Below are positions 14,995-23,016 of a stretch of 23,016 nucleotides of DNA, piece by piece (the stretch's first letter is position 1; each line of letters begins with the position of its first letter). The DNA is from a virus (lineage: Duplodnaviria > Heunggongvirae > Uroviricota > Caudoviricetes): IMG/VR virus record IMGVR_UViG_2563366874_000001; one strand, written 5' to 3'. The notes under the pieces were generated by a model. It worked only from the letters and a program-made list of their open reading frames with translations, was not told the origin of the DNA and did not search any database. The position numbers and the translations under genes are program-made.

Positions 14995-17900
14995 ATGGGT
15001 AAAGGAAGCAGTAAGGGGCATACCCCGCGCGAAGCGAAGGACAACCTGAAGTCCACGCAGTTGCTGAGTGTGATCGATGCCATCAGCGAAGGGCCGGTTG
15101 AAGGTCCGGTGGATGGATTAAAAAGCGTGCTGCTGAACAGTACGCCGGTGCTGGACAGTGAGGGGAATACCAATATATCCGGCGTCACGGTGGTGTTCCG
15201 GGCCGGTGAGCAGGAGCAGACACCGCCGGAGGGATTTGAATCCTCCGGCTCCGAGACGGTGCTGGGTACGGAAGTGAAGTACGACACGCCGATTACCCGG
15301 ACCATCACGTCGGCAAACATCGACCGTCTGCGCTTTACCTTCGGTGTGCAGGCACTGGTGGAAACCACCTCAAAGGGGGACCGGAATCCGTCGGAAGTCC
15401 GCCTGCTGGTTCAGATACAGCGTAATGGTGGCTGGGTGACGGAAAAAGACATCACCATTAAAGGCAAAACCACCTCGCAGTATCTAACCTCGGTGGTGGT
15501 GGGTGACCTGCCGCCGCGTCCGTTCAATATCCGGATGCGCAGGATGACGCCGGACAGCACCACAGACCAGCTGCAGAACAAAACGCTCTGGTCGTCATAC
15601 ACCGAAATCATCGATGTGAAACAGTGCTACCCGAACACGGCACTGGTCGGCGTACAGGTGGATTCGGAGCAGTTCGGCAGCCAGCAGGTGAGCCGTAATT
15701 ATCATCTGCGCGGGCGTATTCTGCAGGTGCCGTCGAACTATAACCCGCAGACTCGGCAATACAGCGGTATCTGGGACGGAACGTTTAAGCCAGCATACAG
15801 CAATAACATGGCCTGGTGTCTGTGGGATATGCTGACCCATCCACGCTACGGCATGGGGAAACGTCTTGGTGCGGCGGATGTGGACAAATGGGCGCTGTAT
15901 GTCATCGGCCAGTACTGCGACCAGTCAGTGCCGGACGGCTTTGGCGGCACGGAGCCGCGCATCACCTGTAATGCGTACCTGACCACACAGCGCAAGGCGT
16001 GGGATGTGCTCAGTGATTTCTGCTCGGCGATGCGCTGTATGCCGGTATGGAACGGGCAGACGCTGACGTTCGTGCAGGACCGACCGTCGGATAAGGTGTG
16101 GACCTATAACCGCAGTAATGTGGTGATGCCGGATGATGGCGCGCCGTTCCGCTACAGCTTCAGCGCCCTGAAGGACCGCCATAATGCCGTTGAGGTGAAC
16201 TGGATTGACCCGGACAACGGCTGGGAGACGGCGACAGAGCTTGTTGAAGATACGCAGGCCATTGCCCGTTACGGTCGTAATGTCACGAAGATGGATGCCT
16301 TTGGCTGTACCAGCCGGGGGCAGGCACACCGCGCCGGGCTGTGGCTGATTAAAACGGAACTGCTGGAGACGCAGACCGTGGATTTCAGCGTGGGTGCTGA
16401 AGGGCTTCGCCATGTACCGGGCGATGTCATTGAAATCTGCGATGATGACTATGCCGGTATCAGCACCGGTGGTCGCGTGCTGGCGGTGAACAGCCAGACC
16501 CGGACGCTGACGCTCGACCGTGAAATCACGCTGCCATCCTCCGGTACCACGCTGATAAGCCTGGTTGACGGAAGTGGTAATCCGGTCAGCGTGGAGGTTC
16601 AGTCCGTCACCGACGGACTTAAGGTGAAAGTGAACCGGGTTCCTGACGGCGTTGCAGAATACAGTGTGTGGGGGCTGAAGTTGCCGACGTTGCGTCAGCG
16701 CCTGTTCCGCTGTGTGAGTATCCGTGAGAACGATGACGGCACGTATGCCATCACTGCCGTGCAGCATGTACCGGAAAAAGAAGCCATCGTGGATAACGGG
16801 GCGCACTTTGACGGCGACCAGAGCGGCACGGTGAATGGTGTCACGCCGCCAGCGGTGCAGCACCTGACCGCCGAAGTCACCGCAGACAGCGGGGAATATC
16901 AGGTGCTGGCGCGCTGGGACACGCCGAAGGTGGTGAAGGGCGTGAGCTTCCTGCTCCGTCTGACCGTAACAGCGGATGACGGCAGTGAGCGGCTGGTCAG
17001 CACGGCCCGGACGACGGAAACCACATACCGCTTCACGCAACTGGCGCTGGGGAACTACAGACTGACAGTCCGGGCGGTAAATGCGTGGGGGCAGCAGGGC
17101 GATCCGGCGTCGGTATCGTTCCGGATTGCCGCACCGGCAGCACCGTCGAGGATTGAGCTGACGCCGGGCTATTTTCAGATAACCGCCACGCCGCATCTTG
17201 CCGTTTATGACCCGACGGTACAGTTTGAGTTCTGGTTCTCGGAAAAGCGGATTACCGATATCAGGCAGGTTGAAACCACAGCCCGCTATCTTGGTACGGC
17301 GCTGTACTGGATAGCCGCCAGTATCAATATCAAACCGGGCCATGATTATTACTTTTATATCCGCAGTGTGAACACCGTTGGCAAATCGGCATTCGTGGAG
17401 GCTGTCGGTCAGGCGAGCGATGATGCGGAAGGTTACCTAGATTTTTTCAAAGGCCAGATAACCGAATCCCATCTCGGCAAGGAGCTGCTGGAAAAAGTCG
17501 AGCTGACGGAGGATAACGCCAGCAGACTGGAGGAGTTTTCGAAAGAGTGGCAGGACGCTAACGATAAGTGGAATGCCATGTGGGGCGTCAAAATTGAGCA
17601 GACCAAAGACGGCAAACATTATGTCGCGGGTATTGGCCTCAGCATGGAGGACACGGAAGAAGGCAAGCTGAGCCAGTTTCTGGTTGCCGCTAACCGTATC
17701 GCGTTTATTGACCCGGCAAACGGGAATGAAACGCCGATGTTTGTGGCGCAGGGCAATCAGATATTTATGAACGACGTGTTCCTGAAGCGCCTGACGGCCC
17801 CGACCATTACCAGTGGTGGAAATCCACCGGCATTTTCCCTGACATCAGACGGAAAGCTGACCGCTAAAAATGCGGATATCAGTGGCAGAGTGAATGCGAA

Positions 17901-18408
17901 CGCCGGGACGCTCAACAATGTCACGGTAAATGAAAACTGTACGATTAAGGGCATGCTGGAGGCGACTCAGGTCAGAGGTGACTTCGTTAAAGCTGTATCC
18001 AAATCATTCCCGAAACAGGCTGGTACGTGGGGTAACACGGAAACACCAAACGGGACGGTTACAGTCACCATCAGCGATGATCATAACTTTGACCGTCAAA
18101 TCATTATTCCGCCCATTATCTTTAACGGAATAGCGTATAGCGATCCGGGAAGTGGTAATAACCCGGGAGGTACAAGATACACGGGTTATGGTTTTGAAGT
18201 TCGCAAAAACGGTGTATTAATCGCATCCAGAGAAACTAAAGGGGCCATTCCCGGTAGCTACAGTGCGGTTATTGATATGCCGAGTGGCAGGGGAAGCGTC
18301 ACTCTGGAGTTTAAGGTTTTCCATAAAGGCAATCAGTGGGCAGGTAATATCACCGACTGTACGGTGATTGTGACCAAAAAAGCCGCTTCCGGCATCAGTA
18401 TTCGTTGA
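14995..18408 (+). CDS. J: Central tail fiber / host specificity protein J (1137 aa)
   Basis: 1137-aa ORF starting [20 protein letters not shown]. Lambda gpJ is 1132 aa by my recollection. The last roughly 150 codons are visibly lower in GC than the rest of the gene. Confidence 0.95.
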
Positions 18409-18477: not shown

Positions 18478-19077
18478 ATGCGTAAACTTTATGCCGCCAT
18501 TTTGTCCGCAGCCATTTGTCTGGCCGTATCCGGTGCGCCTGCATGGGCATCTGAACATCAGTCCACGCTGAGCGCGGGGTATCTTCATGCCCGGACCAAC
18601 GTTCCCGGCAGTGATGATCTGAACGGGATTAACGTGAAATACCGTTATGAGTTTACGGATACGCTGGGGCTGGTGACGTCATTCAGCTATGCAGGAGACA
18701 AGAATCGCCAGCTGACCCGTTACAGCGATACCCGCTGGCATGAAGATTCCGTGCGTAACCGCTGGTTCAGCGTGATGGCGGGGCCGTCTGTGCGCGTGAA
18801 TGAATGGTTCAGCGCGTATGCGATGGCGGGTATGGCTTACAGCCGTGTTTCGACTTTTTCCGGGGATTACCTTCGCGTAACTGACAACAAGGGGAAAACG
18901 CACGATGTGCTGACCGGAAGTGATGACGGTCGCCACAGCAACACGTCTCTGGCGTGGGGGGCTGGCGTGCAGTTTAACCCGACCGAATCCGTGGCCATTG
19001 ATATTGCTTATGAAGGTTCTGGCAGTGGTGACTGGCGCACTGACGGTTTCATCGTGGGTGTCGGTTATAAATTCTGA
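18478..19077 (+). CDS. lom: Outer membrane beta-barrel protein Lom (Ail/OmpX family), 199 aa, with signal peptide
   Basis: N-terminal signal peptide MRKLYAAILSAAICLAVSGAPAWA, alternating beta-strand pattern, and a C-terminal aromatic end (GVGYKF). Located between J and stf as in lambda. Confidence 0.9.
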   Translation: MRKLYAAILSAAICLAVSGAPAWASEHQSTLSAGYLHARTNVPGSDDLNGINVKYRYEFTDTLGLVTSFSYAGDKNRQLTRYSDTRWHEDSVRNRWFSVMAGPSVRVNEWFSAYAMAGMAYSRVSTFSGDYLRVTDNKGKTHDVLTGSDDGRHSNTSLAWGAGVQFNPTESVAIDIAYEGSGSGDWRTDGFIVGVGYKF

Positions 19078-19141: not shown

Positions 19142-21538
19142 ATGGCAGTAAAGATTTCAGGTGTACTGAAAGACGGCACAGGAAAACCGGTACAGAACTG
19201 CTCAATCCAGCTGAAAGCAAAACGTAACAGCACCACGGTGGTAGTGAACACGCTGGCCTCAGAAAATCCGGATGAAGCCGGGCGTTACAGTATGGATGTT
19301 GAGTATGGCCAGTACAGCGTTATCCTGCTGGTTGAAGATTTTCCGCCTTCACATGCCGGGACCATCACCGTGTATGAAGATTCTAAGCCGGGGACGCTGA
19401 ATGATTTTCTCGGTGCCATGACGGAAGATGATGTCATGCCGGAGGCATTGCGTCGTTTTGAGGAAATGGTGGAAGAAGCGGCACGCAACGCTGAAGCCGC
19501 CTCTCAGAGCGCAGCGGCGGCAAAGAAATCCGAAACTGCAGCGGCATCATCGAAGAACGCGGCGAAAACCTCAGAAACGAATGCAGCTAATAGTGCACAG
19601 GCGGCAGCGACCTCAAAGACTGCATCGGCAAACTCCGCGACAGCAGCCAAAAAATCAGAAACCAACGCGAAAAATAGCGAGACAGCCGCAAAGACGAGCG
19701 AAACCAACGCAAAGTCCAGCCAGACGGCAGCGAAAACCAGCGAAACGAATGCCAAAGCCAGTGAAACTGCGGCAAAAAACAGCCAGGTTGCAGCAGCCCA
19801 AAGCGAGAGCGCGGCAGCCGGTTCTGCGACTTCAGCAGCTGGATCAGCAACTGCTGCGGCTAACAGCCAGAAAGCTGCGAAGACGAGTGAAACTAACGCA
19901 AAGTCCAGCCAGACGGCAGCGAAGACCAGCGAAACGAATGCCAAAACCAGCGAAACTGCGGCGAAAAACAGTCAGGATGCAGCAGCCCAAAGCGAGAGTG
20001 CTGCAGCTGGTTCTGCAAGCGCGGCAGCTGCTTCTGCCACTGCATCAGCCAACAGTCAAAAAGCAGCAAAAACCAGTGAAACCAATGCAAAGACAAGCGA
20101 GACTGCAGCGGCGAACTCGGCGAAAGCATCGGCAGCAAGCCAGACAGCAGCTAAAGCAAGTGAAGACGCAGCCAGAGAGTATGCAAGTCAGGCAGCAGAG
20201 CCGTATAAATATGTCTTACAGCCACTGCCTGATGTGTGGATACCGTTTAACGATTCACTGGATATGATTACGGGCTTTTCGCCGTCATATAAAAAAATTG
20301 TTATTGGTGATGATGAAATAACGATGCCTGGCGACAAGGTTGTTAAGTTTAAACGCGCATCAACTGCCACATATATCAATAAATCAGGCGTATTTAGTGT
20401 TGCTAAAATTGATGAGCCACGATTTGAAAAAGAAGGTTTATTGATTGAAGGACAGCGCACTAACTATTTTGTTAAATCCAATACTCCCGCTGAATGGACG
20501 AGTACCAGCAATATCGATAAAACTAATAATGGTGTTGATGAATTTGGTTTTTCATATGCCAAAATGCGAACAAAAGATAATATGACAGGACAATCATCTG
20601 CACTTAGTCTGCATACATGCAGTGCATCCCGGGGGATTGATGTTAGTGGCGATAATAAGTATTGCACTGTTTCATGCAGGGTTAAAGCTCCTGATGGTCT
20701 TCGTTGTCGTTTGCGTTTTGAAAAATACGATGGGTCGGTTTATACATTTTTAGGAGATGCTTATTTAACTTTCGGAACTCTGATAATAGAAAAAACTGGC
20801 GGAGCAGCCAATAGAATAGCAGCTACTGCAACTAAAGATCCGGTTACAGGGTGGATTTTCTATGAGGCAACTATAGAAGCTGTTGAAGGTGAAACCTTAA
20901 TTGGCGCAATGATTCAGTATGCGCCGAAAAAAGGTGGTATAACTGAAGCGGGAGATTATATTTACCTTGCAACACCACAATTTGAAAACGGCGGATGTGC
21001 TTCATCTTTTGTTATTACGACAACTGCACCCGCAACCCGCTCCAGTGATATGGTGACGATCCCAACTGAAAATAATATCTATAATAGACCGCTTACGTGT
21101 CTTGTCGAGGTTAATAGAAATTGGGGCGATATTCCTCCTAATGTAGCACCGCGTATTTTTGATTTTTCTGGTGTGCCACCTATTGAGTCAATTACATACG
21201 CTTTTAACACAACTGAGAAATATTACGGTCAGCTTTATATGCAAACTTATAAAGCGTCGACAAGTACTTACGTTTCTAGTGTGTTTGCTGGTCGAGCTGA
21301 TGTTCGAAAATTCATTGGTGGTTTTAATATTTATTCTGATGGTACTAAACGAGTAGTTTCTAACGGTGAGGCTACTAAAACTATGAAAACGGAGTGGACG
21401 GGCGTAAAAACACGGACCTTTATTCGAATTGGAGGTCAAGCCACATCGGGAACTCGTCATCTATTCGGCCATTTGAGAAATCTTCGTCTCTGGCATAAAG
21501 AATTAACTGATGCGCAAATGGGGGAGAGTATTAAATGA
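19142..21538 (+). CDS. stf: Side tail fiber protein (798 aa), mosaic: lambda-Stf-like N-terminus, Ala/Ser/Thr-rich repeat shaft, low-GC C-terminal receptor-binding region
   Basis: The N-terminus MAVKISGVLKDGTGKPVQNC...TITVYED matches my recollection of the lambda Stf N-terminal domain. Residues about 120-350 are AAKTSETNAK-type repeats. From about nt 20200 the sequence is AT-rich and ends with a LamG/ConA-like signature (HLFGHLRNLRLWHKELTDAQMGE). Confidence 0.85.
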   Translation: MAVKISGVLKDGTGKPVQNCSIQLKAKRNSTTVVVNTLASENPDEAGRYSMDVEYGQYSVILLVEDFPPSHAGTITVYEDSKPGTLNDFLGAMTEDDVMPEALRRFEEMVEEAARNAEAASQSAAAAKKSETAAASSKNAAKTSETNAANSAQAAATSKTASANSATAAKKSETNAKNSETAAKTSETNAKSSQTAAKTSETNAKASETAAKNSQVAAAQSESAAAGSATSAAGSATAAANSQKAAKTSETNAKSSQTAAKTSETNAKTSETAAKNSQDAAAQSESAAAGSASAAAASATASANSQKAAKTSETNAKTSETAAANSAKASAASQTAAKASEDAAREYASQAAEPYKYVLQPLPDVWIPFNDSLDMITGFSPSYKKIVIGDDEITMPGDKVVKFKRASTATYINKSGVFSVAKIDEPRFEKEGLLIEGQRTNYFVKSNTPAEWTSTSNIDKTNNGVDEFGFSYAKMRTKDNMTGQSSALSLHTCSASRGIDVSGDNKYCTVSCRVKAPDGLRCRLRFEKYDGSVYTFLGDAYLTFGTLIIEKTGGAANRIAATATKDPVTGWIFYEATIEAVEGETLIGAMIQYAPKKGGITEAGDYIYLATPQFENGGCASSFVITTTAPATRSSDMVTIPTENNIYNRPLTCLVEVNRNWGDIPPNVAPRIFDFSGVPPIESITYAFNTTEKYYGQLYMQTYKASTSTYVSSVFAGRADVRKFIGGFNIYSDGTKRVVSNGEATKTMKTEWTGVKTRTFIRIGGQATSGTRHLFGHLRNLRLWHKELTDAQMGESIK
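19688..20062 (+). repeat. Two tandem copies of an approximately 186-189 bp (62-63 aa) in-frame coding repeat within stf, themselves built from roughly 21-bp (7-aa) sub-repeats
   Basis: Copy 1 at 19688-19873 encodes AKTSETNAKSSQTAAKTSETNAKASETAAKNSQVAAAQSESAAAGSATSAAGSATAAANSQK. Copy 2 at about 19877-20062 encodes the same with a few substitutions. The segment AAAGTCCAGCCAGACGGCAGCGAA recurs at 19710 and 19890. Confidence 0.85.
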
Positions 21539-21816
21539 AAGATTTAACACTCAAATTTGCAGACAGGGCCGACTTTTCGGCCTTTATGGAGAGCATTGGC
21601 TATTATGATGACGAGTCGATGCAGGATGATATTCTTATTGACGTGATAGGTAATGTGTACAAAGAAACCGGAGAACTTACTGAAGATGGCGAGCCGGTAT
21701 GTGTTAAGGAGGACGGATATTTTGTAAATGTGCGCATCATTAATGATTCGCAAATATCGTCATTATTCGATGAATACGTGGTTGCTGTTGAGCATCAACT
21801 CCGTAGCTGGATGTGA
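21535..21816 (+). CDS. Small acidic hypothetical protein (93 aa), translationally coupled to stf; possible tail fiber assembly or chaperone factor
   Basis: ATGA overlap with the stf stop codon. Low GC like the stf 3' region. No recognisable similarity to lambda Tfa, so the function is inferred from position only. Confidence 0.5.
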   Translation: MKDLTLKFADRADFSAFMESIGYYDDESMQDDILIDVIGNVYKETGELTEDGEPVCVKEDGYFVNVRIINDSQISSLFDEYVVAVEHQLRSWM

Positions 21817-21825
21817 GGAAGAAAA

Positions 21826-22530
21826 ATGGCTACATCGACAGTAATTCCTGATGACATCAAAACGCTAAAGGGAGATGTCAGTAAGGCAAAGGAAGATATT
21901 TCCTCAATTAACGTAAAAGTATCAACGCTTCAGACTGATATGGACAGTGCAAAGCAGGATATCAGTACCAGATACACAAAAACAGAAGTGGATAATAAGC
22001 TGAAAAACAAAGTGGAAGTGAACGATCTGGAAAGTGGTCGTTATGGCGGAGATTTTTACCCGCTGACTGGCCGTGAAGCGTTTTATTTATGGGGATTGGG
22101 CACAACTACAGCGGCGGCAAATCTTTATCTTAATCCTGACCCTGCAATTTCGTCTGTGCTGCGGTCAACATCGTCTATCCGCTATAAACATTCAGTAGAG
22201 ACGATAGATTCAGAGCACGCCGATCTCATTTTCAGGATGCGCCCTGTGTGGTACAGGTCGCAATGCGAAAATGACAGGCGTGACTGGGGATTCTATGGAT
22301 TGATTGCCGAGGAAGTAGGAGAAATTGCCCCTCAGTTTGTTCACTGGCGACCAGCCAACGAAGATGATGCACCGGAAACCATTTCCAGCAATGGCCTTGT
22401 TGCCGAAGGTGTAATGTACGAACGTCTGGTTGTTCCACTGATTCACCATATCCAGAAACTGACTGAAAGAGTTGATGAACTTGAGTCAGAATTGAAGTTG
22501 TTATCAACTTCCCAAAGCGATATCGGATAA
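21826..22530 (+). CDS. Tail-fiber-like protein (234 aa): N-terminal coiled-coil-like region plus C-terminal peptidase-S74-like intramolecular chaperone domain
   Basis: GGAAGA Shine-Dalgarno-like sequence upstream of ATG 21826. The C-terminal half (SSIRYKHSVETIDSEHADLIFRMRPVWYR...GLIAEEV...LVVPLIHHIQKLTERVDELESELKLL) follows the pattern of the endosialidase/T5 pb1 C-terminal chaperone domain, including a Ser-x4-Lys dyad at S116/K121 (nt 22171-22188). Confidence 0.65.
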   Translation: MATSTVIPDDIKTLKGDVSKAKEDISSINVKVSTLQTDMDSAKQDISTRYTKTEVDNKLKNKVEVNDLESGRYGGDFYPLTGREAFYLWGLGTTTAAANLYLNPDPAISSVLRSTSSIRYKHSVETIDSEHADLIFRMRPVWYRSQCENDRRDWGFYGLIAEEVGEIAPQFVHWRPANEDDAPETISSNGLVAEGVMYERLVVPLIHHIQKLTERVDELESELKLLSTSQSDIG

Positions 22531-22551
22531 AGGAGGAGTAATGGATATAAC

Positions 22552-23016
<465 letters not shown>

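Follow-up and report, generated by a model that had tools for sequence, protein, structure and literature searches.

The right end of the window, by which we mean the whole stretch of 23,016 nucleotides analysed here (IMG/VR record IMGVR_UViG_2563366874_000001), holds the tail-fibre genes of a lambdoid prophage. In the list of open reading frames (ORFs), J (14995-18408) and lom (18478-19077) are followed by stf, a side tail fibre gene of 798 amino acids (aa) on the plus strand (19142-21538), which is also recognised by Pfam and PHROG. Directly after stf, on the same strand, lies a small gene of 93 aa (21535-21816), referred to below as ORF93, which belongs to the phrog_1361/phrog_18574 family. 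The next gene, d1 (21826-22530, plus strand), encodes a distal fibre-like protein of 234 aa that was recognised by Pfam PF13884 and phrog_3299. The subject of this report is ORF93 and its relationship to the C-terminal part of the stf fibre.

The start codon of ORF93 (ATG, 21535-21537) overlaps the stop codon of stf (TGA, 21536-21538) in the tetranucleotide ATGA at 21535-21538 of the plus strand, and the overlap reported in the preliminary description of this locus is thereby confirmed from the sequence. A Shine-Dalgarno-like stretch, GGGGGAGAG, lies within the last stf codons (21520-21528, plus strand); its GGAG is placed 8 nucleotides before the ORF93 ATG, and five other phage lineages have a GGAG or GGGA stretch equally far from the start codon. 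Conservation of the overlap, together with a ribosome site inside stf, implies that the small protein is made in a coupled, roughly equimolar manner beside a fibre C-terminus that has just been completed. The position is the one held by tfa in lambda, as had also been stated: lambda tfa lies in the same place and overlaps its fibre gene in the same manner, with orf-314 and tfa sharing nucleotide 21973.

The ORF93 product is indeed short and acidic, with an isoelectric point (pI) of 4.05 and a net charge of -14 (21 Asp and Glu residues versus 7 Lys and Arg residues), and neither a signal peptide nor a membrane segment was detected in it. Residues 1-93 align with positions 1-92 of the 92-position profile of phrog_1361, a family of unknown function (E = 2.7e-46); the second PHROG match is the sister family phrog_18574 (E = 1.8e-8), to which the homologues from Aeromonas and Silvania belong. 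No Pfam family was matched at E <= 1, and neither an NCBIfam family nor a PDB relative was found. When the family profile was searched against 1.84 billion cluster representatives, 88 matches were obtained. True family members are stand-alone proteins of approximately 85-125 aa that share the motifs M[KR]D..L[KR]F, D[VI]IG, GY[FH]VN[LV]R and a C-terminal R.WA, and these motifs are retained down to approximately 30% identity. ORF93 agrees with them in size, in standing alone and in the shared motifs, and no ORF93-fibre fusion is present among the 88 family clusters. Proteins of 600-2,700 aa with PKD/TPR domains were considered as tandem-repeat relatives and rejected, as their scores were sums of weak domains and the best single-domain E value exceeded 40. 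The AlphaFold2 (AF2) model of ORF93, computed from 45 homologues, has a mean predicted local distance difference test score (pLDDT) of 82 and a predicted template modelling score (pTM) of 0.69. It describes an alpha/beta fold composed of a strand, two helices, four strands and a helix. A structural-neighbour search with this model returned nothing informative, and the predicted fold is without a known counterpart. The monomer model leaves the final five residues disordered, yet R90 and W92 among them are invariant, which is what would be expected if this modelled tail were a binding peptide.

ORF93 is a real gene under purifying selection and not a chance ORF. Pooled over 40 distinct 93-codon alleles, the ratio of nonsynonymous to synonymous substitution rates (dN/dS) is 0.36 in the ORF93 frame, compared with 1.14 and 0.78 in the other frames. 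The DNA of ORF93 is present in 988 of 5,426 complete E. coli genomes; conservation in related prophages, on which the preliminary description had made its proposal depend, is therefore evident. Protein relatives occur in 181-207 phage records, and the carriers comprise lambdoid, T1-like, Dhillonvirus, Seuratvirus/Nonagvirus, T5-like and rV5-like phages. Several records labelled 'Campylobacter phage' or 'Listeria phage' (MG0656xx and OR8477xx) contain T5-like or rV5-like coliphage sequence identical to that of E. coli phages, and they are probably mislabelled or contaminated.

The stf fibre is composed, in order, of an N-terminal anchor, an Ala-rich repeat shaft and a mobile C-terminal module. 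The anchor is a lambdoid N-terminus (Pfam PF08400 at aa 1-131, E = 1.9e-68), and the protein as a whole matches phrog_1419 (tail protein) across its full length. The shaft (19430-20200), rich in Ala, Ser, Lys and Thr, is encoded by DNA with a very strong AT skew (0.5-0.65) and contains an internal direct repeat of approximately 249 bp and 84% identity (19673-19921 versus 19862-20110). The module covers aa 362-798 (approximately 440 aa; 20225-21535, plus strand), as delimited by blastp boundaries, alignment and the drop in GC content. The GC content drops from 0.55-0.60 to 0.37-0.43 in the stretch from about 20200 to 22200, with a sharp step from 0.56 to 0.37 at approximately 20200, and this step coincides with the onset of homology to the fibres of unrelated phages (stf aa ~362). 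The low-GC C-terminal module postulated earlier is thus real, and its boundary looks like the recombination junction of a module. Consistent with mobility, the module is 36-56% identical (38-59% in another count) to fibres of T1-like, Dhillonvirus, Seuratvirus, T5-like and rV5-like phages whose N-termini are unrelated, and in the protein database it stands behind several different N-terminal Pfam anchors.

Two parts of the module have to be distinguished. The middle part (aa ~450-616; 20489-20989, plus strand) is a domain resembling a carbohydrate-binding module (CBM). It is modelled confidently by AF2 as a beta-sandwich and has a homologue in the RcGTA head spike fibre (PDB 6tb9, E = 5e-14); it is also similar to carbohydrate-binding modules and to a Pseudomonas phage baseplate/fibre protein. 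The C-terminal region (aa 619-798; 20996-21535, plus strand), the proposed binding partner of ORF93, is basic, contains invariant columns and ends in the strongly conserved motif ...HLFGHxRNxRxWHKxLTDxQ. In the AF2 monomer this region reaches a pLDDT of only 25-40, whereas the middle domain folds well from the same alignment. More generally, the first ~80 and the last ~180 residues of the module are strongly conserved, and both remain below a pLDDT of 40 as monomer. In five of the six lineages the last 148 aa of the fibre have a pI of 9.0-9.7; the small protein, in contrast, is acidic throughout (pI 4.0-4.5). Taken from the sequences, these complementary charges may be counted in favour of a pairing of the two. 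A supposed likeness of the fibre-terminal 'RIWxxALTDxQ' to LamG/ConA-like domains was dropped; it has no Pfam support, and the region is not confidently modelled.

ORF93 travels with the C-terminal module of stf, and not with the phage backbone or the fibre N-terminus, in six or more phage groups and in three lineages of bacteria. A homologue lies directly after the long fibre gene in the lambdoid PhiR49_1, in swan01 (Drexlerviridae), KarlBarth (Dhillonvirus) and VogelGryff (Seuratvirus), and likewise in the T5-like EC100 and IrisVonRoten and the rV5-like JeffSchatz. Such co-transfer had been suggested at the outset, together with a check of co-occurrence, and the check was run in both directions. 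With the small ORF as query, 95 of 97 loci have a fibre module ending in a stop/start overlap, and the other two are broken fibre genes; the overlaps are of the types ATGA (35) and TAATG/TGATG (59). With the module alone as query, a 93-110-aa member of the family overlaps the fibre stop in 77 of 80 diverse viral contigs (28-92% identity); of the remaining three, one lies at a locus end, one has a frameshift and one has a divergent copy. The small ORF thus nearly always follows fibres that have the same C-terminal module. In a genome search through the module alone, with one genome per species, the ORF was found at all eight enterobacterial loci (Escherichia, Silvania, Buttiauxella, Leclercia and a mislabelled metagenome-assembled genome, MAG). 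Similarly, a divergent ORF of 104 aa with an ATGA overlap and the same motifs is present in all three prophages of Aeromonas, where the fibre module has only 25-27% identity. The co-inheritance of ORF93 and the module is therefore obligate and reciprocal, and the geometry of the coupling is conserved. The loci that retain only a part of the module are informative as well. An archaeal MAG and an Endozoicomonas locus possess the CBM-like domain without the conserved C-terminal region, and no small ORF is recognisable in them, which indicates the last ~180 aa of the fibre as the partner. The RcGTA head spike fibre Rcc01080 (6tb9), to which the middle domain of the module is homologous, lacks the conserved C-terminal region that tracks ORF93.

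As a rule, fibres of this type depend on assistance at the C-terminus, which is provided in trans by Tfa or gp38 or in cis by an S74 domain. The module has neither a Tfa/gp38-type gene nor an S74 domain, and its one invariable companion gene is ORF93. In the rV5-like phages, the same fibre gene exists with two C-terminal alleles: rV5 gp41 ends in an intramolecular chaperone of the endosialidase type and lacks the small ORF, whereas JeffSchatz and FFH2 have the module and the ORF. The general need for C-terminal help, the constancy of ORF93 as sole companion, this exchange of alleles and the lambda tfa position lead us to favour, with a probability of about 0.55, the reading that ORF93 is a module-specific, trans-acting assembly partner of the last ~180 fibre residues. 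Binding, binding site and chaperone activity are here inferred from position, coupling and co-inheritance. By analogy, ORF93 would replace lambda Tfa or an intramolecular chaperone in this module.

The mechanism may be pictured as follows. The ribosome that finishes the last fibre codons would re-initiate on ORF93 at the ATGA overlap, and the fibre and ORF93 would thus be made close together and in roughly equal amounts. The acidic alpha/beta protein would then bind the basic, conserved last ~180 residues of the fibre, which appear not to fold alone, and this binding would help to nucleate trimerisation and folding from the fibre C-terminus. The job proposed for ORF93 would then be that of Tfa for lambda Stf, or of the C-terminal intramolecular chaperone in T5 pb1 or rV5 gp41.

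Comparison with the known systems shows similarity in arrangement and difference in sequence. Lambda Tfa, T4 gp38, P2 G and Mu U (PF02413, Caudo_TAP) are, like ORF93, separate polypeptides whose genes lie directly after the fibre gene, and Tfa-type proteins are likewise specific to the C-terminal part of the fibre and transferred with it. Lambda Tfa, however, matches PF02413 at E = 2.8e-43 and has 194 aa, whereas ORF93 is half that size, its family has no Pfam match, no counterpart of its predicted fold is known, and hhalign gave a probability of 0.2% for the comparison of the two. The earlier remark that ORF93 does not resemble lambda Tfa is borne out by these values. The Peptidase_S74 intramolecular chaperone (endosialidases, T5 pb1, rV5 gp41) has an equivalent place at the C-terminal end of the fibre; ORF93, in contrast, is separate from the fibre and does not match PF13884, and the S74 domain of this locus sits in d1. 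T4 gp57A, a small general fibre chaperone, forms an all-helical coiled-coil oligomer, and its gene lies apart from the fibre genes. Judged by this description, ORF93 is set apart from it by its five beta-strands and three helices in the AF2 model and by a gene that is always linked to the fibre. The ORF93 family is probably a new fibre accessory family, unrelated in sequence to the known chaperone families.

Three points weigh against a role in assembly. First, the low AF2 confidence at the end of the fibre may merely reflect dependence on the trimer or a shallow alignment (31 sequences). Second, the order stf - ORF93 - distal fibre fits a structural connector as well, and the IrisVonRoten homologue is annotated as a 'tail fiber protein'. 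Third, Gp22 and Gp24 were the components of the published AlphaFold-Multimer model of the IrisVonRoten fibre, and the figure legends to this model make no mention of the small protein (PMC11990801).

IrisVonRoten, a Tequintavirus of the BASEL collection, is described as having a two-part lateral fibre, formed by the proximal Gp22 with a 'galectin-like' domain and by the T-shaped Gp24 (PMC11990801). This phage shares the module: bas32_0022 ends in it, bas32_0023 is an ORF93 homologue of 92 aa, and bas32_0024 begins with the same N-terminal peptide as d1. The distal protein is much longer there (574 aa) than in the window (234 aa). The 'galectin-like' domain of Gp22 is probably the CBM-like middle domain. 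A figure legend of that paper calls the proximal fibre Gp22, its main text has Gp23 (PMC11990801), and the fibre in GenBank is bas32_0022. In the BASEL annotation the gene after the small ORF is a 'putative lateral tail fiber chaperone', and the small ORF itself is hypothetical, except in IrisVonRoten as mentioned above.

The d1 product of the window begins with a 'TVIPxDIxxLK' peptide, termed here the plug, which is followed by a coiled coil and a C-terminal Peptidase_S74 domain (PF13884 at aa 116-172), and it matches only the last ~230 of the 1,385 positions of phrog_3299. Judged from its sequence, only approximately 115 aa would be left as the mature part after self-cleavage, and d1 may represent either a distal fibre of minimal size or a relic.

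This gene order raises the possibility, which we regard as doubtful but the most serious of the alternatives, that ORF93 is retained in the virion as a connector or socket at the end of the proximal fibre, where exchangeable distal receptor-binding proteins (d1 and its variants) would dock. An analogue for such a role would be the small hinge proteins found in the long tail fibre of T4. The order proximal fibre - ORF93 - distal fibre is what would be expected, and 89 of the 97 Escherichia-type loci have a d1-type gene with the 'TVIPxDIxxLK' N-terminus and a highly variable body (90-576 aa, most commonly 234 and 346 aa). The plug, i.e. the first ~26 residues of IrisVonRoten Gp24, has matches only in module-carrying phages. 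A second enterobacterial clade of IMG/VR loci shows a parallel arrangement, in which variable downstream genes of 200-340 aa have at their N-terminus a conserved peptide particular to this clade, 'MANR[IK]DSI[TS]L'. In addition, the rV5-like module carriers, in which d1 is missing, have a differing terminal fibre motif and a replaced C-terminal third of the ORF that is unrelated to that of the other lineages. The annotation of the IrisVonRoten homologue would agree with a virion protein too. However, the ORF is kept where there is no distal fibre to be docked: in Aeromonas the operon often has no further gene on that strand after it, in an E. ruysiae locus d1 is missing, and in about 17 loci of the second enterobacterial clade a Mu-like baseplate gene follows the ORF instead. 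Given that the gene after ORF93 varies or is lacking, it is the C-terminal module of the fibre and not the distal fibre that accompanies ORF93 constantly. We found no paper that gives the small protein a role, and the literature on BASEL, DT57C, Sf11, rV5, JenP1/2 and the Eligo lambda-Stf chimeras yielded neither virion proteomics nor genetics of it. The search found no virion proteomics for any carrier; rV5, which has been studied by proteomics, has the other fibre allele and lacks the ORF, and LtfA and LtfB of DT57C are consecutive gene products (gp108 and gp107) of a different fibre type.

A more far-reaching form of this idea, to which we give rather little credence, is that ORF93 is a permanent stoichiometric subunit that completes the fold of the fibre C-terminus and serves as a universal socket for the N-terminal plug peptides of the distal proteins. 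If so, lambdoid, T1-, T5-, Seurat-, Dhillon- and rV5-like phages would have in common a three-part plug-and-socket fibre system.

ORF93 could also act as a transient cap that masks the carbohydrate-binding domain or the tip of the fibre in the producing cell and is shed later, by which the sticking of progeny to lipopolysaccharide or debris would be avoided. The CBM-like domain of the module and the putatively stoichiometric production suggested by the conserved overlap are compatible with this. Transient chaperone caps are described for the tail fibres of Alteromonas phages (PMC10579305, cited in PMC11990801) and, by that description, resemble ORF93 as cognate accessory proteins shared with a fibre module among distant phages. 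We nevertheless consider a cap unlikely, as the presence of the ORF follows the C-terminal region and not the CBM-like domain. Finally, a passenger gene unrelated to the fibre (a moron, anti-defence gene or exclusion factor) or an untranslated ORF would suit a small gene of no annotated function, but this is very improbable given the same position in structural operons of the strictly lytic T1-, T5- and rV5-like phages, the lack of a signal peptide or membrane segment, the in-frame purifying selection and the motifs kept in distant relatives.

The assembly-partner reading would have practical consequences. About 18% of complete E. coli genomes carry the fibre module together with ORF93, and so do many coliphages that belong to model collections or are candidates for therapy (BASEL Bas05, Bas25, Bas32, Bas55 and others). 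Should the fibre need ORF93 in order to fold or to carry its distal receptor-binding protein, host-range engineering must move the small gene together with the module, and structure predictions of such fibres made without it are incomplete. A confirmed role in assembly would also constitute a fourth, sequence-unrelated solution to fibre C-terminal assembly, beside Tfa/gp38, gp57A and the intramolecular chaperones, and would provide a function for two PHROGs listed as 'unknown' (phrog_1361 and phrog_18574).

Downstream of d1, the window retains only a remnant of a further gene, d2, which consists of three codons and part of a fourth (22541-22551, plus strand) and was recognised by alignment with PhiR49_1 and strain SCU-172. 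In intact prophages, d2 follows d1 and encodes a hydrophobic protein of 97 aa; the intact copy matches phrog_1443 (function unknown) at E = 5e-58. Here the gene, the last of the module, is cut after its third codon by the insertion, at 22552, of an IS3-family element, the end of which occupies 22552-23016 with its transposase on the minus strand and which continues past the end of the window. The identity to PhiR49_1 and to strain SCU-172 (99.4%) ends exactly at 22551.

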